In this document: positions 41,675 through 63,375 of the stretch, piece after piece | Layout of the letters: each line of letters opens with the position of its first letter | Numbering within the stretch: the stretch's first letter is position 1 | Source of the DNA: Gaiellaceae bacterium | GTDB taxonomy: Bacteria > Actinomycetota > Thermoleophilia > Gaiellales > Gaiellaceae | Assembly: GCA_035252585.1 (NCBI GenBank) | Contig: DATFCX010000010.1 | Coordinates: forward strand, 483 to 64,482 | DNA length: 64,000 bases | Reading direction: 5' to 3' | Program-made: the position numbers and the translations under genes | The notes under the pieces: model-generated | What the model was told of the DNA's origin: nothing | Seen by the model: the letters and a program-made list of their open reading frames with translations, nothing else | The model's database searches: none

Positions 41675-43996
41675 ATGACCGACGACGAACTCCGCCTCCT
41701 CGATGCGTACTGGCGCGCCGCGAACTATCTCTCGGTCGGGCAGATCTACCTGCTCGACAACCCGCTCCTGCGCGAGCCGCTCATGCCGGAGCACGTCAAG
41801 CCGCGGCTGCTCGGCCACTGGGGGACGACGCCCGGCCTCAACTTTCTCTACACGCATCTGAACCGCGCGATCCGCGAGCGCGGCCTCGACGCGATCTTCG
41901 TCTGCGGTCCCGGCCACGGCGGGCCTGCGGTCGTCGCGCAGTCGTACCTCGAGGGGACGTACAGCGAGCTCTACCCGCACGTCACGCGCGACGAGGACGG
42001 GCTGCGGGCGCTGTTCCGCCAGTTCTCGTTCCCCGGCGGGATCCCGAGCCACGCCGCGCCCGAGACGCCGGGCTCGATCCACGAGGGCGGCGAGCTCGGG
42101 TACGCGCTCTCGCACGCCTACGGCGCCGCCTTCGACGATCCGGCCCTGACCGTCGCCTGCGTCGTCGGCGACGGCGAGGCGGAGACCGGGCCGCTCGCCA
42201 CGAGCTGGCACTCGAACAAGCTCTCGAACCCGGAACGGGACGGCCGCGTCCTCCCGATCCTCCACCTCAACGGCTACAAGATCGCGAACCCGACCGTCCT
42301 CGCGCGGATCCCGGAGGACGAGCTCGCCTCGCTGCTGCGCGGCTACGGCCACGAGCCGCTCGTCTTCACCAGCGGGTTCGACGACGAGGACGTCCTCTCG
42401 ATCCACGGCCGTTTCGCCGAGCTGCTCGACCACGCGCTCGACGACCGGCGGGCGACGATCGTGTTCCGCACGCCGAAGGGCTGGACCGGGCCGCGCGAGG
42501 TCGACGGAGTGCAGGTCGAGGGGACGTGGCGGGCGCACCAGGTGCCGCTCGCGGAGGTGAGGACGAACGAGCGGCACCGGCGCCAGCTGGAGGAGTGGTT
42601 GCGGAGCTACCGGCCGGAGGACCTGTTCGACGACGCCGGAGCCCTGCGCGAGGAGCTCGTCCTGCTCGCGCCCGAGGGCGAGCGCCGGATGTCGGCGAAC
42701 CCGAAGGCGAACGGGGGCCTCCTCCTGCGCGACCTGGTGCTGCCGGACTTCCGCCGCTTCGCGGTCGACGTGGACGAGCCCGGCGGCACGACCGCCGAGG
42801 CGACGCGCGTCCTCGGCCGCTGGCTCACCGAGGTCGTGCGCGCGAATCCCGACAACTTCCGCATCTTCGGCCCCGACGAGACGGCGTCGAACCGCCTCGA
42901 CGCCGTGTTCGAGGTGACGGCCAAGCAGTGGAACGCGCGGGTGGAGCCCGTCGACGAGCACCTCGCGCCGAGCGGCCGGGTCGTGGAGATGCTCTCCGAG
43001 CACCAGTGCCAGGGCTGGCTCGAGGGCTACCTCCTCACCGGGAGGCACGGGCTCTTCAACTGCTACGAGGCGTTCATCCACATCGTGGACTCGATGTTCA
43101 ACCAGCACGCGAAGTGGCTGAAGGTCACGCGCGCCATCCCGTGGCGGCGGCCGATCGCCTCGCTCAACTACCTGCTGAGCTCGCACGTCTGGCGCCAGGA
43201 TCACAACGGCTTCTCGCACCAGGATCCCGGCTTCATCGACCACGTCGTGAACAAGAAGGCGGAGATCATCCGCGTCTACCTCCCTCCGGACGCGAACTGC
43301 CTCCTCTCGGTGGCCGATCACTGCCTGCGCAGCCGGCACTACGTGAACGTGATCGTCGCCGGGAAGCAGCCGGCGCTGCAGTTCCTGCCGATGGACGACG
43401 CGATCCTCCACTGCACGCGCGGCGTCGGAATCTGGGACTGGGCCTCGAACGACGACGCCGGCGAGCCCGACGTCGTGCTCGCGTGCTGCGGAGACGTGCC
43501 GACACTCGAGACGCTCGCCGCGGCGTCGATCCTCCGCGAGCGGCTGCCGGAGCTCGAGGTGCGCGTCGTCAACGTCGTCGACCTGATGCGGCTCGAGCCC
43601 GAGAGCGAGCACCCGCACGGGCTTCCCGACCACGAGTTCGACTCCATCTTCACGACGACGCGCCCCGTCGTCTTCGCCTACCACGGCTACCCGTGGCTGA
43701 TCCACCGGCTCACGTACCGCCGCACGAACCACGCCAACATCCACGTGCGCGGGTACAAGGAGGAGGGGACGACCACGACGCCGTTCGACATGGTCATGCT
43801 CAACGACCTCGACCGATACCACCTCGTCATCGACGTGATCGATCGCGTGCCGGGCCTGGTCGAACGCGCCGGCCACCTCCGGCAGGAGATGGAGGACGCG
43901 CGGCTGCGCGCCCGCGCCTACGCCCGCGAGCACGGGGAGGACGCGCCCGAGGTGGCGGAGTGGCGCTGGCCGCCGGAGGCGGTCGTCTCGCCCTAG
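41675..43996 (+). CDS. xfp: xylulose-5-phosphate/fructose-6-phosphate phosphoketolase
   Basis: [43 protein letters not shown] and the rest of a 773-aa colinear phosphoketolase. SD GGAAGGAGAG upstream. Confidence 0.95.
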
Positions 43997-46309: not shown

Positions 46310-46747
46310 TCAGCCGGTCAGCGGCTTGCCGGTCTCGAGCAGCGTCTTGAGACCGGAGAGGACGAACATCCAGCCTCCGGAGACGCCCGCCGCGGTTTTC
46401 GGCGCACCCTCGAGCTGGTCGTGGACGACGGTGAGCTTGGTGATCCCGCCGTCCTGGGGTTCGATCTCCCAGGTGAGGCGGCTCGGCTCCTCCGCCGCCA
46501 TCTCGGGGTCGTAGGCCGAGATCCACTGGTGCACGAGCCGGTGTGGCCGGTCGGCCTCGAGCACCTCCTCGTCCCACTCGGTGTCGCCGATCACGGAGAA
46601 GCGGCGGCCGTCTCGTACCTCGATGCGGGCGCCGAAGAAGTACTGCTGCGTGAACTCCGGCTTCGTGATCGCGTCCCAGACCTGCTCGGGGGTGGCGCGG
46701 ATGAAGACGGAGTAGACCTGCGTTGTCTGTGCGGTAAGCGTGCTCAT
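46310..46747 (-). CDS. SRPBCC (AHSA1/START-like) family protein
   Basis: ATG 46747 overlaps the ArsR stop (ATGA). VFIRATPEQVWDAITKPEFTQQYFFG...RLTWEIEPQDGGITKLTVVHD is the typical Aha1-domain pattern. Confidence 0.8.
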   Translation of the reverse strand: MSTLTAQTTQVYSVFIRATPEQVWDAITKPEFTQQYFFGARIEVRDGRRFSVIGDTEWDEEVLEADRPHRLVHQWISAYDPEMAAEEPSRLTWEIEPQDGGITKLTVVHDQLEGAPKTAAGVSGGWMFVLSGLKTLLETGKPLTG

Positions 46748-47061
46748 GCGGTGTCCTCCAGTTCGTGCTTGAGATCCGCGAGCGCCGCGACGCGGTGCTC
46801 GGTGTACTTGTCGATCCACCGGTCGTGGATGAGCCGGATCGGAACCGGGTTCAGGAAGTGGAGCTTCTCCCGGCCCGCCCGGCGGGTGACGACGAGCCCG
46901 GAGTCCTCGAGCACGCGCAGGTGCTTCATCACGCCGAAGCGGGTCATCTCGAGCTCGGACTCGAGCTCCGTGAGCGTGCGGCCGTCGCGCTCGAAGAGCC
47001 GGTCGAGGAGATGGCGCCGTGTCGAGTCGGCGAGCGCCTTGAAGACCTGGTCGTCGTCCAC
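46744..47061 (-). CDS. ArsR/SmtB family transcriptional regulator
   Basis: VFKALADSTRRHLLDRL...LTELESELEMTRFGVMKHLRVLEDSGLV is a wHTH. 105 aa, GTG start. Confidence 0.85.
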   Translation of the reverse strand: MDDDQVFKALADSTRRHLLDRLFERDGRTLTELESELEMTRFGVMKHLRVLEDSGLVVTRRAGREKLHFLNPVPIRLIHDRWIDKYTEHRVAALADLKHELEDTA

Positions 47062-47103: not shown

Positions 47104-47691
47104 CTACGTGAACGGCTTCAGGACCATCGCGGCCACGACGATCAGGAGCACGCCCTCGTCTACCCGGGCAATGAGAAGGATCCGCCGGATGGCCGCCTGT
47201 GTCTCGGCCGCGTCCGCGCCCACCGTCTCGATCAGCTGTCCGATGCGCTTCGCCTGAGGGCCGAGGACGAGGAGGCCGGTCAAGAACGTGATCACGTAGC
47301 CGACCAGCCCCACCACGATCCAGGACGTTCCCCAGTCCAGGTTCAGGTTGACGACCATCGCTATGCCCATCGCGAGCACCAGCAGGCCGATGGGGGCGAA
47401 CACTCGCTCGCCGATGAATGCAGCCTGTCTCGCAATCGTCGCCATCTCAGAGGGATCGGATGAGCGCTCGGCTCGCAGCGCGAGGATCGTCAGCGTCAGG
47501 CCTCCGCCGACCCAGAGGACGGCTCCGGTCACGTGCACCCACTTGAAGAAGGCATACCAGTGCGACGGAGCGACGTTCGTCTTGAAGACGAAGACGAGCG
47601 CGAGGGCCAGGACGGCGAGCCCGACCACGGCGGTGACCGTGGTCGAGGCGCGGCGGTCTGTGGCCGTCGCGGCGGGATGTGAAGTGTCCAT
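47104..47691 (-). CDS. integral membrane protein (DUF2269-like, tentative)
   Basis: ATG 47691 within track ORF 47104-47787. Four TM spans; FFKWVHVTGAVLWVGGGLTL. Confidence 0.5.
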   Translation of the reverse strand: MDTSHPAATATDRRASTTVTAVVGLAVLALALVFVFKTNVAPSHWYAFFKWVHVTGAVLWVGGGLTLTILALRAERSSDPSEMATIARQAAFIGERVFAPIGLLVLAMGIAMVVNLNLDWGTSWIVVGLVGYVITFLTGLLVLGPQAKRIGQLIETVGADAAETQAAIRRILLIARVDEGVLLIVVAAMVLKPFT

Positions 47692-47720: not shown

Positions 47721-48182
47721 CTACAAGCCCCGCGCCGCGGCGATCAGCTCGTCCAGATCGGGCAGCTCGCTCGGCTCGTACGCCCACGCGCCGCGGACGA
47801 CGCCGTCGGTGTCCACCAGGAACGCGCTGCGCTGCGAGACGTCCCGCATCCCGTTGTAGTCGATCGCGACGCCGAAGCCGCGTGTCGCGTCGGCGTTCCA
47901 GTCGGACAGGAGCGGGAAGTCTAGGTCGAGCGCCTGCATCCAGGCGACGTGCGTGTACGGCGAGTCGCGCGAGATCGCGAACGGCTCGACGCCGGCGTCC
48001 TGCAGCTCCGCTCTCCTGTCACGCAGGAGCTCGAGCTCCGTCGTTCAGGTGGCGGACCAGTCGAAGAGATAGAAGAGGAGCAGCAGCGGACGCTCGTGGA
48101 TCAGGTCGCCGACGCGCGCGCGCTCGCGCGGCGTCGTCCAGATCACCGCCTCGAGCGGCGCTGTCTCCCCGGTCTCGAGCAT
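47721..48182 (-). CDS. AhpE/BCP-type 1-Cys peroxiredoxin with in-frame TGA (48045-48047) at the peroxidatic position: candidate selenocysteine protein, alternatively a nonsense pseudogene
   Basis: Track ORFs 48045-48281 and 47721-47939 share one frame. Joined, they read ...LLLLFYLFDWSAT-TGA-TTELELLRDRRAELQDAG...FPLLSDWN...QRSAFLVDTDGVVR, 153 codons in total. GC3 is high on both sides of the TGA. Confidence 0.6.
48004..48037 (-). promoter_or_regulatory. SECIS-like stem-loop downstream of the in-frame UGA
   Basis: mRNA: UGA-ACGACGG-AGCUC-GAG-CUCCUG-CGUGA-CAGGAG-AGCG-GAGCU. The lower 5-bp helix begins 8 nt after UGA. The upper helix is a perfect 6 bp. The 5-nt apical loop, containing G-U, lies 22-26 nt after UGA. 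Confidence 0.4.
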
Positions 48183-48192
48183 GCCGCCGATC

Positions 48193-49419
48193 CTATGCGG
48201 CGGCCGCGGGCTCGGGTTCGGGCGCGACCTCCGTCGCCTCCGCGATCTCGCGCACGACCTCGACGATGTCGCGATTCGCATTGAAGATGTGCAGCTGCCG
48301 GTCTGCGCCGTTGCCGCGGCGCAGGATCTCGTCGACGCCCGCGAGCTCCTCCTCCGAGCCGAGATCGCGCGCGTGCGGGCCGATCGTCTTCAGCGTCCGC
48401 CGGACGAGAGCGGCCACCGGCAGCCGGTTGCGGCGCCCCGTGTGCAGGTCCATCACGGGCGCGGAGAGCCCGTAGCGCGCGGCGAGCCACTTGTTCTCGG
48501 TGGTGAGGATGCGGTGGAAGGAAGGGATCTCCTCGCCGCGCTCCACGAGCTCCGCGTAGTGCTTCACGAGCGCCTGGCAGTAGGCGGTGATCGCGATCAC
48601 GTCGTCGAGCCGCGTCACGGCGTCGCAGATCCGGAGTTCGACTGTGCCGAGCCGCGGGTGCAGGCGGATGTCCCACCAGATGTGCGTGTAGTCCTGGATG
48701 CAGCCGGTCTTCTCGAGCTGGTTCACGACTTGCGCGTAGTCGGCGTAGTCGCGGAAGCGGGGAGGAGGCCCGGAGCGCGGGAAGGCGGCGAAGACCATGT
48801 GGCGCGAGGATCGGAGCCCCGTCGGCTCGCCGCGCCAGAACGGCGAGCTGGCCGACAGCGCGACGAGCTCCGGGAGGTGCGCGATCAGCGCGTTCACGAC
48901 CTGGATCGCCTTCTCCGCGTCGTCCACCGCGACGTGCACGTGCATCCCGAAGATGAGCTCGCGCCGCGCGATGTACTGCATCTGGTCGACGAGCGCGCGG
49001 TAGCGATCCTTGGCCGTGATCCGCTGAGTCTCGAACAGCGAGAACGGATGCGTGCCCGCCGAGCCGACACGCAGGCCTTTCTCCCGCGCGATGTCCGTGA
49101 CGTAACGCCGGATGCGGAGGAGCTGCTGCTGCACTCCCGCCGGCGTGTGGCAGACGGGTGTGGCCACCTCGAGCACCGACTGCATCAGCTCTGCGTTGAT
49201 CCGCGGCTCGAGCTCGTGCCCAGCGACCGCTGCGAGCACGGTGTCGATGTGCTGGACGAGGTCGAACGTCTCGGCGTCGAGGAGCATGTACTCCTCCTCG
49301 ACCCCGAGCGTGTACGGGTCACTCGCGCCGAAGGCGTGGTCGAGCACGCTGCCGCCCGGCGGGAACTGCGAGCCTTTGCCGGTGATCGAAACCGGAATCA
49401 GGGAGTCCGAGTCGGTCAT
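48193..49419 (-). CDS. carboxylate-amine ligase, glutamate--cysteine ligase family 2 (YbdK-like)
   Basis: ATG 49419 overlaps the YhhQ stop (ATGA). TLGVEEEYMLLD, ELMQSVLEV, GTHPF, IFGMHVHV and WWDIRLHPRLGTVELRICD are GCS2 hallmarks. Confidence 0.85.
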   Translation of the reverse strand: MTDSDSLIPVSITGKGSQFPPGGSVLDHAFGASDPYTLGVEEEYMLLDAETFDLVQHIDTVLAAVAGHELEPRINAELMQSVLEVATPVCHTPAGVQQQLLRIRRYVTDIAREKGLRVGSAGTHPFSLFETQRITAKDRYRALVDQMQYIARRELIFGMHVHVAVDDAEKAIQVVNALIAHLPELVALSASSPFWRGEPTGLRSSRHMVFAAFPRSGPPPRFRDYADYAQVVNQLEKTGCIQDYTHIWWDIRLHPRLGTVELRICDAVTRLDDVIAITAYCQALVKHYAELVERGEEIPSFHRILTTENKWLAARYGLSAPVMDLHTGRRNRLPVAALVRRTLKTIGPHARDLGSEEELAGVDEILRRGNGADRQLHIFNANRDIVEVVREIAEATEVAPEPEPAAAA

Positions 49420-50030
49420 GCCGGGACGATATCCCCCGTGTTTGCAGGAAGAAAGCGTCGGCCGAGCACGACGAGCGGGATTCCGATCACGACCGACGAG
49501 GCGATCTTCCCCACGAGCTGGCCGTCGAAGAAGTGGAGGCCTGCGGTCCCGAACGCGAGCACGAGGAAGACCGCGCTGTCGATCGGGGCGCTGGCCCCCG
49601 CCGAGACAGCGACGCGCACGCCGTCGTGCACGCGCCCGCGGAGCGGAGCGCCCACGAGGTTGTCGACGGTCTCCGACGCGAGGAAGGCGGCGAGGCTGGC
49701 GGCCACGATGCGCCACGTCGAGCCCACAGCGCTGTCGAACTCCTGGCCCGGAAAGGCCGGGTGGGAGTGGACGAGGAGCGCGATGTAGCCGGCGAAGAAC
49801 GCCGAGCCGACGAAGCCGAGACCGATCAGGAGCTGGGCGTTGACCGCGCCGTCGCGGCGGGTCGCGCCGGTGTGGTGCGCGAGCTGCACGAGCGCGAGCG
49901 CGACGCCGATCGAGTAGACGCCGCCGGGAGCCTGCAGGTGCGTGAACGGGAGGCGGATGAACTTCTGCGCGCCGATCTGCGCCGAGAGCACGACGGCGAC
50001 ATAGAGCCCGGCGAGGGTGGCGAGCCTCAT
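49416..50030 (-). CDS. VUT-family queuosine-precursor transporter (YhhQ/DUF165-like)
   Basis: 204 aa with 6 TM. LAAFLASETVDNLV and SAPIDSAVFLVLAFG motifs. The ATG overlaps the RidA stop (ATGA). Confidence 0.75.
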   Translation of the reverse strand: MRLATLAGLYVAVVLSAQIGAQKFIRLPFTHLQAPGGVYSIGVALALVQLAHHTGATRRDGAVNAQLLIGLGFVGSAFFAGYIALLVHSHPAFPGQEFDSAVGSTWRIVAASLAAFLASETVDNLVGAPLRGRVHDGVRVAVSAGASAPIDSAVFLVLAFGTAGLHFFDGQLVGKIASSVVIGIPLVVLGRRFLPANTGDIVPA

Positions 50031-62156: not shown

Positions 62157-62203
62157 CCGGCCCTGACGATACGCAAAGCCCCGGGCCTTAGACTGAGGCT
62201 CCT

Positions 62204-62278
62204 CGGGGCGTAGCTCAGCCTGGTCAGAGCGCCCGGTTTGGGGCCGGGAGGCCGGCAGTTCGAATCTGCCCGCCCCGA
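62204..62278 (+). tRNA. tRNA-Pro (anticodon UGG)
   Basis: Cloverleaf read by hand. Acceptor CGGGGCG/CGCCCCG, D arm GCTC-AGCCTGGTCA-GAGC, anticodon arm CCCGG-TTTGGGG-CCGGG (UGG at 34-36), variable AGGCC, T arm GGCAG-TTCGAAT-CTGCC, discriminator A. CCA is not encoded. Confidence 0.9.
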
Positions 62279-62316
62279 TACCGCAACCCGATCGCGTCCT
62301 GTGTCGTTGCCCCGAC

Positions 62317-63375
62317 ATGCCCGCACGGGACCAGCAGCGCGGCGCGACGCAGGTGGAGGAGACCCGGCGCCCGCAACCCGACGAAGCGCCGCTCGACGAC
62401 GGGCGCGCAGACGGAGCTCCGATGCCGCAGCCGGAGCGCGACGAGCCGCGGCTCGTCGATCCGGGCCTCGGCGACCTCTCCTTCCGCGACTGGCGGGCGA
62501 TCCTCGTCCGTGCCGTCAAGGAGTTCCTCGACGACAACGGGACGATGCTCGCGTCGGCGCTCGCGTACTCGACCTTCTTCGCGATCCCGTCGGTCCTGCT
62601 CGTCGTGGTCGGCGTCTTCTCGCTCCTGGTGGGGCCGGACACGATCACGTCCCTCATGGCGCACTTCTCGAAGGTGATGCCGGGTCAGGCCGCGAACCTG
62701 CTCGGCGGAAGCCTCAAGCGCCTGAACCAGAATCCGTCGACCGGCGTCGTGATGACGATCGTCGGCTTCGTGCTCGCGCTCTGGGCGACGACCGGCGCGA
62801 TGACGACGTACATGACGGCGCTCAACCTCGCCTACGAGCGCAAGGACGGGCGCTCGTTCGTCCGCAAGCGCATCGTCGCCGCCCAACTCGTCGCGGTGAT
62901 CGGAATCGCGTTCCTGCTCGTGGCGATCCTGCTCATCTTCGGACCGCCGATCGAGCGGTTCGTCGCCTCGCACGCCGGCCCGCTCTCCGGTGCGATCGGC
63001 TGGATCTGGTGGATCGCGACGTGGCCGATCCTCGTCGCCGGCCTCCTGGCGGCGTTCGCGACGCTGCTCTATCGCGGTCCGGACGTCGAGCACCCGCACT
63101 GGCGCTTCATCACGCCCGGCTCGGTCTTCGCGGCCGTCGTCTGGCTCGGCGCCTCGGGCGCCTTCGCGTTCTACACCTCGAGCTTCGGCTCGTACAACAA
63201 GACGTGGGGATCGCTCGCCGCGGTGATCATCATGCTCACGTGGCTCTGGCTCGCCGGGATCGCGCTGCTCCTCGGCGCCGAGATCAACGCCGAGGCCGAG
63301 CGGAGCCGGGAGCTGCGGGAAGGCCGGCCGGCCGAGCGCGCGCTGCTGGTGCCGTCGCGGTCCGGCTCGCGCTGA
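62317..63375 (+). CDS. YihY/BrkB family membrane protein (copy 2, with an about 60-aa hydrophilic N-terminal extension)
   Basis: GTMLASALAYSTFFAIPSVLLVVVG, TTYMTALNLAYE, and the C-terminal GAEINAE pattern. Confidence 0.8.
   Translation: MPARDQQRGATQVEETRRPQPDEAPLDDGRADGAPMPQPERDEPRLVDPGLGDLSFRDWRAILVRAVKEFLDDNGTMLASALAYSTFFAIPSVLLVVVGVFSLLVGPDTITSLMAHFSKVMPGQAANLLGGSLKRLNQNPSTGVVMTIVGFVLALWATTGAMTTYMTALNLAYERKDGRSFVRKRIVAAQLVAVIGIAFLLVAILLIFGPPIERFVASHAGPLSGAIGWIWWIATWPILVAGLLAAFATLLYRGPDVEHPHWRFITPGSVFAAVVWLGASGAFAFYTSSFGSYNKTWGSLAAVIIMLTWLWLAGIALLLGAEINAEAERSRELREGRPAERALLVPSRSGSR

Follow-up and report, generated by a model that had tools for sequence, protein, structure and literature searches.

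The stretch analysed here (the window) comprises 64,000 nucleotides (nt) of contig DATFCX010000010.1 from the Gaiellaceae bacterium assembly GCA_035252585.1, and on its minus strand it carries a peroxiredoxin reading frame with a TGA codon at the position of the catalytic residue. As judged from comparison with related genomes, this locus is very probably one intact gene, in which the internal TGA encodes selenocysteine (Sec) at the catalytic site of a 1-Sec peroxiredoxin. The UGA is conserved and recoded in nearly all the relatives, the coding sequence on both sides of it is under selection, a hairpin just downstream is constrained at the RNA level, and an orthologue with cysteine (Cys) at the same codon exists. 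The gene and its unusual codon are located as follows.

47721 to 48182, minus strand: proposed selenoprotein coding sequence (CDS) for a 1-Sec peroxiredoxin of the AhpC/TSA family, 153 residues including Sec46, with ATG at 48182-48180 and TAG at 47723-47721.
48045 to 48047, minus strand: in-frame TGA, the proposed Sec codon (codon 46), in the peroxidatic Cys column of the motif L-F-D-W-S-A-T-U; TGA in 80 of 81 sequences (the window and 79 loci) and TGC in the other (locus L058).

An earlier note on this DNA, made from its letters alone, had proposed that two mechanically called open reading frames (ORFs), 48045-48281 and 47721-47939, belong to a single gene. They do share one frame, the TGA being followed by 35 sense codons before the ATG of the second ORF, and the minus-strand frame running from ATG 48182 to TAG 47723-47721 contains a single internal TGA; the translation of the joined 153 codons is identical to the string given in that note. 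With U written as C, the joined protein passes the gathering score of the Pfam family AhpC-TSA (PF00578; 2.5e-22, 79.5 bits, cut-off 26) and also matches Pfam Redoxin. The placement of the TGA in the peroxidatic Cys column, which the earlier note had argued by comparison with Mycobacterium tuberculosis AhpE, is borne out by alignment with the BCP of Aeropyrum pernix (PDB 2cx3), where it falls on the Cys of 'FSPVCTKEL'. The Ser at -3 is present and the active-site Arg is conserved, QRSAFLV of the window protein aligning with AKRAVFIV of A. pernix BCP, and the third-position G+C content (GC3), described earlier as near maximal on both sides of the TGA, is 0.93 on either side. When the six frames of the window were scanned for coding-TGA-coding junctions on the basis of GC3, this site was the only convincing one.

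The relatives were sampled by scanning one genome per GTDB species, which yielded 80 loci with their flanks, nearly all of them in metagenome-assembled genomes (MAGs) labelled Gaiellaceae, Gaiellales or Thermoleophilia; their proteins are 62-89% identical to that of the window. TGA occupies exactly this codon in the window and in 79 of the 80 loci, and TGC is found in the remaining one, L058, so that the orthologues do not display an all-Cys pattern. Agreement of this extent among independent species-level genomes far exceeds what chance would give. In every locus with the complete gene on its contig, L053 excepted, the frame is open to the normal C-terminus without an added in-frame stop, and a check of the relatives for further frameshifts or stops found none beyond a 1-nt insertion in L053. 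The ratio of nonsynonymous to synonymous substitution rates (dN/dS) is 0.13 over the 14 codons before the TGA, which form the N-terminal core, and 0.30 over codons +12 to +105 in the C-terminal part; both halves flanking the TGA are under purifying selection.

Two of these loci deserve separate mention. The L053 gene (L053:10001-10460) lies in the long-read MAG MFD00008.bin.2.49, where the insertion shifts the frame of the N-terminal part and the TGA and the invariant hairpin are kept; the insertion is probably a long-read assembly error and not decay. At L071:3812-4240 the same TGA-containing peroxiredoxin with an identical hairpin is found on a contig binned as 'Acidobacteriota bacterium REEB338', and this is probably a mis-binned Gaiellales contig.

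Cys stands at the TGA column not only in the L058 orthologue (protein P0002) but also in at least 50 other homologues. Sec and Cys forms are interleaved in a rough neighbour-joining tree of 144 sequences, which implies several Sec/Cys switches, and repeated switching of this kind is known for bacterial thiol oxidoreductase selenoproteins (PMC1794560, PMC13188914).

The region following the TGA contains a candidate for the bacterial selenocysteine insertion sequence (SECIS), with the following elements.

48013 to 48029, minus strand: proposed bacterial SECIS upper hairpin, with stem CUCCUG at 48029-48024, loop CGUGA at 48023-48019 and stem CAGGAG at 48018-48013.
48004 to 48037, minus strand: extended stem-loop in the window, in which a lower stem at 48037-48032 pairs with 48010 and 48008-48004 and encloses the upper hairpin.

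The 17-nt hairpin starts 15 nt past the UGA and its apical loop lies 21 nt from it (15 + 6). In the alignment the lower stem is kept only in the closer relatives, and the flanks vary in a divergent subgroup. The nucleotides GAGCTCCTGCGTGACAGG, immediately 3' of the TGA, show little or no variation among the TGA-bearing sequences examined, and a per-codon analysis of 78 sequences found zero synonymous variation at codons +5 to +11 (GAG CTC CTG CGT GAC AGG AGA). This frozen stretch includes the Arg codons CGT, AGG and AGA, which are rare in a genome of about 70% G+C; elsewhere in the gene, invariant Leu and Arg columns have a codon entropy of 0.6-1.7 bits, and the synonymous rate (dS) is 0.15 across the hairpin stretch as against 0.54-0.59 elsewhere. 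One common stem of 6 bp, CUCCUG/CAGGAG with a CGUGA loop, was obtained with RNAalifold from 47 representative sequences; it is never broken, and its only changes are U-A to U-G wobbles at two stem positions in six sequences. The Cys orthologue L058 encodes a near-identical peptide (Lys for Arg at +10) with other codons, CTG TTG CGC GAC AAG, and there the hairpin is gone, the region folding no better than shuffled sequence (z = 0.26). A conserved downstream hairpin, for which the earlier note had suggested checking the orthologues, is therefore kept to the nucleotide, and only where the TGA is present; it was found nowhere else in the fetched DNA and is confined to this gene. The evidence for RNA-level selection on the hairpin lies in the suppression of synonymous sites and its coupling to the TGA state.

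The published bacterial SECIS (bSECIS) model specifies a loop of 3-9 nt, a stem of 4-16 bp, a minimum free energy of -7.5 kcal/mol or lower, a G within the first two loop positions that is usually followed by G or U, and a distance of 16-37 nt from the UGA to the loop (PMC13188914). In its structural features the candidate agrees with this model, having a 5-nt loop, a 6-bp stem, a G at loop position 2 followed by U, and a distance of 21 nt. The folding energy is -7.4 kcal/mol (z = -2.6) for the bare 17-mer and -18 kcal/mol for the 45-nt element that includes the lower stem of the window. Compared with the SECIS of E. coli fdhF, in which the spacer is about 11 nt, the candidate hairpin has a spacer of 15 nt, is unrelated in sequence and has no evident bulged U. 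Like the fdhF-type element and the bSECISearch consensus, it is a hairpin within the CDS just 3' of the UGA with G-U in the apical loop, the loop lying 21 nt from the UGA (range 16-37) and the upper stem-loop measuring 17 nt (criteria from PMC13188914).

Genes for Sec decoding were found on contigs that may be attributed to the same lineage. Metagenome contigs were scanned with a high-GC back-translation of the pyridoxal phosphate (PLP) motif of SelA, GDKLLGGPQ, and all 120 stretches retrieved in this way encode SelA homologues, many with adjoining selB, selD and tRNA-Sec genes. The tetranucleotide composition of one of them, L169, is nearest to that of the Gaiellaceae set (r = 0.990; leave-one-out range for true Gaiellaceae loci, 0.967-0.997), and its gene order is selA, a methyltransferase gene, selB and tRNA-Sec. 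Homologues of its SelA, 89-98% identical, are encoded on the MAG contigs L201 (ERZ25039602:contig_12339, 2.99 Mb) and L202 (1.34 Mb). On L201, SelA scores 530 bits on TIGR00474 (cut-off 268), SelB 374 bits on TIGR00475 (cut-off 242) and tRNA-Sec 62.9 bits on RF01852 (gathering score 47); the tetranucleotide correlation of this contig to the Gaiellaceae set is r = 0.991, and its methylmalonyl-CoA mutase, the gene for which is 8 kb away from selA, shares a 90%-identity cluster with HYZ20360.1 '[Gaiellaceae bacterium]'. All three contigs, assigned here to Gaiellaceae, carry selA, selB and tRNA-Sec. The gene between selA and selB in these Gaiellaceae-like loci is O-methyltransferase-like (PF08100 Dimerisation and PF00891 Methyltransf_2; L169:10848-11798 on the minus strand, L202:11296-12246, L201:11296-11811), with a product of 316 residues that is truncated to 171 in L201, and tRNA-Sec directly follows selB in L169 and L202.

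Several observations weigh against Sec as the residue inserted in the peroxiredoxin. A search by ARAGORN and by tblastn with E. coli SelA, SelB and SelD probes (which worked on the 120 SelA loci) covered the 64-kb window and 1.47 Mb of fetched flanks, extending up to 10 kb from the gene in the 80 loci, and found no selA, selB, selD or tRNA-Sec gene; the absence of sel genes from a 64-kb sample is uninformative. On the contigs assigned to Gaiellaceae (L169, L201 and L202) selD was not seen. The Sec genes and the peroxiredoxin were not placed in one genome, the match lists of SelA, SelB and the peroxiredoxin sharing no contig, and a blastn comparison of the sel loci with the peroxiredoxin loci yielded paralogue-level matches only. 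As regards the hairpin, the energy of the bare stem, -7.4 kcal/mol, misses the -7.5 kcal/mol threshold by 0.1, and RNAalifold detected invariance and wobble pairs only, with no compensatory double changes, the lack of covariation being due to the fact that the hairpin is essentially invariant. No Rfam family matches it, nothing being reported for the window at gathering thresholds, and a permissive scan of 47950-48100 gave chance microRNA matches only and no curated SECIS family. As regards the protein, the canonical Pro of the PxxxTxxC motif is replaced by Leu.

An improbable alternative is that recoding of the UGA inserts a residue other than Sec, through read-through by a near-cognate tRNA (for Trp, Cys or Arg) stimulated by the hairpin or through reassignment of UGA. 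In its favour are the lack of a genome shown to carry both the Sec machinery and the peroxiredoxin, and several JGI gene calls with W at the Sec column (L207:20-553, protein P0001, and P0010, P0018, P0020, P0036, P0040, P0044, P0049, P0054, P0058 and P0067) and one with G (P0109). However, the one W call checked, in L207, stands on a TGA codon, and its translation has W at the true terminal TGA as well; the calls with W or G evidently arose as artefacts of gene calling with genetic codes 4 or 25 on short contigs and are not evidence for Trp. TGA is still a terminator, ending this same gene in 14 loci and 22 of the 45 crude gene calls in the window, that is, about half of its genes. In addition, an enzyme with Trp, Arg or Gly as its peroxidatic residue would be inactive, although its other active-site residues are conserved; TGA and Cys are the only two states of the column, the classic Sec/Cys signature; and selA, selB and selC are present on contigs assigned to the lineage.

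A genuine, conserved stop at the UGA, yielding a 45-residue peptide and a separately initiated C-terminal protein of about 100 residues in a split or regulatory arrangement, is very doubtful. A minority of orthologues do have an ATG four codons past the TGA (...TxE-M-ELLRD...), and products of 104 residues are annotated by both NCBI and JGI; however, the codon is CTC in most orthologues, including that of the window, and the next in-frame start is 35 codons downstream, neither piece is a complete thioredoxin fold, the catalytic residue is missing from both, and the Cys orthologues are single proteins of 152-156 residues. The other explanation offered in the earlier note, a strain-specific nonsense mutation (TGC or TGT to TGA) producing a fresh pseudogene, has a negligible probability and is refuted, even though TGA is one base from TGC and gene callers split the locus into fragments of 45 and 72 or 104 residues, by the presence of the same TGA, with no added in-frame stop, in 79 of 80 species-level genomes whose proteins are as little as 62% identical to that of the window, by low dN/dS on both sides and by the frozen synonymous sites of the hairpin. 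The same three lines of evidence, the TGA in 79 of 80 loci, selection on both halves and a hairpin conserved together with the TGA, favour the proposal of a Sec codon over decay.

We infer Sec as the inserted residue, SelB as the means of its insertion and an external reductant for the enzyme. By analogy with the established bacterial Sec pathway, UGA codon 46 would be read by Sec-tRNA(Sec), which SelB would deliver while bound to the mRNA at the hairpin CUCCUG-CGUGA-CAGGAG, 15 nt 3' of the codon. Peroxiredoxin chemistry suggests that a selenolate at the peroxidatic position of the thioredoxin-fold protein, marked by LFDWSxTU and the conserved Arg, would reduce peroxide via a selenenic acid. 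The gene of the window contains no Cys codon, the UGA position aside, and its product therefore has no resolving Cys; with no other Cys in the protein, recycling by an external thiol would be needed.

The position of the protein among peroxiredoxins was assessed by sequence profiles and by a structural model. In the motif LFDWSxTU, Leu takes the place of the Pro of the universal PxxxTxxC in every Sec form as well as in the nearest Cys forms, and the Pro is kept (FYPFDWSATC) only in more distant Cys homologues. No NCBIfam equivalog is reached at its cut-off, the scores being 58.6 bits against 272 for AhpC, 47.7 against 270 for PrxU (NF040737) and 45 against 140 for BCP. Among solved structures, phmmer ranks A. 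pernix BCP (2cx3) first (2.4e-17), with a second archaeal Bcp-type match at 1.3e-15 and Mycobacterium tuberculosis AhpE at 3.7e-12. An AlphaFold (AF2) model of the Cys orthologue P0003, which is 66% identical to the window protein, was built from a 46-sequence alignment with a predicted local distance difference test score (pLDDT) of 95; in Foldseek it is closest to Sulfolobus solfataricus Bcp4 (PDB 3hjp; template modelling (TM) score 0.93, 26% identity), followed by M. tuberculosis AhpE (TM 0.89, 30% identity) and M. tuberculosis BcpB (TM 0.88), with TM scores of 0.85-0.93 across solved peroxiredoxins. Taken together, sequence and model would place the family as compact 1-Cys-type proteins of about 153 residues between AhpE and the archaeal Bcp proteins. 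The label 'AhpE-type' used earlier holds for the length of about 153 residues, the 1-Cys type and the missing resolving Cys, whereas archaeal BCP and Bcp4 are closer by phmmer and TM score; it is a fair if approximate description of the probable working mode, and membership of that subfamily is not demonstrated.

M. tuberculosis AhpE (PDB 1xxu/5id2) shares with the window protein the length of about 153 residues, a single catalytic residue and the lack of a resolving Cys. It differs in having Cys and the canonical Pro, and its sequence similarity is weaker than that of the archaeal BCPs; for its recycling, AhpE depends on mycothiol/mycoredoxin, a low-molecular-weight thiol system. The archaeal Bcp types (Bcp4, 3hjp, and A. 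pernix BCP/PrxQ, 2cx3) are the best matches among solved structures by both sequence and fold and have the same length and architecture, but they are Cys enzymes of archaea, and the window protein lacks the resolving Cys that A. pernix BCP carries at +5.

Sec-containing peroxiredoxins as such are not new, as the earlier note rightly stated in citing PrxU of Eubacterium acidaminophilum; they form an established prokaryotic family within PF00578 with a TxxU motif (PMC13188914, PMC1794560). Its prototype is that PrxU (Söhling et al. 2001, as cited in PMC13188914), and further members have been predicted in Deltaproteobacteria, Clostridia and Symbiobacterium (PMC1794560). The window protein resembles this family in its AhpC/TSA fold, in Sec (here proposed) taking the place of the peroxidatic Cys in (T/S)xxU, in a SECIS hairpin (here a candidate) within the CDS right after the UGA, and in abundant Cys homologues with repeated Sec/Cys switching. 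It differs in having LxxxSxxU in place of PxxxTxxU, in its 153 residues without a resolving Cys, in its occurrence throughout Gaiellaceae, soil Actinomycetota, as opposed to the anaerobes of the first catalogues, and in being paired with a GCS2 ligase gene; nor is it PrxU itself, given the score on NF040737. What is newly recognised is thus a lineage-wide Sec-peroxiredoxin of an already established kind, not a new system. Its distinctive traits are its near-universal presence in Gaiellaceae, the LxxxSxxU motif, the absence of Cys, the GCS2 partner gene and a minimal candidate SECIS conserved to the nucleotide. No link between Gaiella or Gaiellales and selenocysteine was found in the library of papers searched.

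The prediction that such a gene would be missed by standard gene callers agrees with the state of the databases. In a protein search, full-length predicted homologues had at most 71% identity, and dozens of matches at 78-93% identity were only 94-104 residues long and covered the part after the TGA alone, so that gene callers elsewhere evidently stop at this codon too. Hundreds of database entries are fragments of 94-104 residues named 'redoxin domain-containing protein' or 'peroxiredoxin', the name at NCBI being 'redoxin domain-containing protein [Gaiellaceae bacterium]', and some entries owe their full length only to the wrong use of code 4 or 25 (one such case checked). In the divergent subgroup (for instance L055, L056, L062 and L065-L070) codon +4 after the TGA is ATG (T-x-E-M-E-L-L), compared with CTC in the main group, and for this reason many database fragments start with 'MELLRD...'. 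With the Sec codon recognised, a conserved antioxidant enzyme would be correctly annotated throughout an abundant family of soil Actinomycetota. The finding would also imply that the Gaiellaceae examined use selenium, extending Sec-peroxiredoxins to a soil lineage beyond the anaerobes of the first catalogues. Moreover, the clean natural series of Sec and Cys forms, with a minimal and strictly conserved candidate SECIS, may be used to study Sec retention and SelB recognition in Actinomycetota.

The genes surrounding the peroxiredoxin are the following.

48193 to 49419, minus strand: glutamate-cysteine (carboxylate-amine) ligase of the YbdK/GCS2 family, upstream, with its stop 10 nt before the peroxiredoxin ATG.
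47104 to 47691, minus strand: DUF2269 integral membrane protein of 195 residues, downstream (Pfam 5.1e-19); present downstream in 46 of the 80 loci.
46744 to 47061, minus strand: ArsR/HTH_20 family transcription regulator of 105 residues, further downstream (Pfam HTH_20 6.7e-10); present in 36 of the 80 loci.

The ligase matches Pfam GCS2 at 3.1e-61 and the NCBIfam profiles NF010043 (410.5 bits, cut-off 409) and NF010039 (408 bits, cut-off 371). Its mechanical ORF, 48193-49716 on the minus strand, has 507 residues; the gene call on an identical 8.8-kb ENA contig has 408, the profile match begins at about residue 137, and the true start is probably near 49419. Given the 10-nt gap between the ligase stop and the peroxiredoxin ATG, the two genes probably form one operon, and in 68 of the 80 loci the ligase gene is on the same strand and no more than 4 kb upstream, directly adjacent in most of the loci displayed. 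More speculatively, the peroxiredoxin might be recycled by a low-molecular-weight thiol tied to the probably co-transcribed YbdK/GCS2 ligase, or else by a thioredoxin- or glutaredoxin-like partner; the pairing with the ligase suggests that a gamma-glutamylcysteine-type thiol may recycle the selenenic acid. It is conceivable, although rather unlikely, that the 1-Sec peroxiredoxin and the ligase constitute an undescribed peroxidase system dependent on both selenium and a low-molecular-weight thiol, which would be a core, lineage-wide trait of Gaiellaceae, a group among the most abundant actinobacteria of soil, and could be a principal reason for this aerobic lineage to keep the Sec machinery. 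Were such a system real, the ecology of Gaiellaceae would be tied to the availability of selenium in soil.

Two other sites in the window may be mentioned. The GC3-based scan flagged one other junction, at 62685-62687 on the minus strand near the tRNA-Pro gene at 62203-62279; it is unconvincing, with an atypical first-position G+C content (GC1) of 0.44-0.51, and probably arises as an artefact of an antisense frame. At 41675-43996 on the plus strand, some 4 kb away from the peroxiredoxin locus, lies an ordinary gene for a phosphoketolase of 773 residues (XFP_N, XFP and XFP_C).

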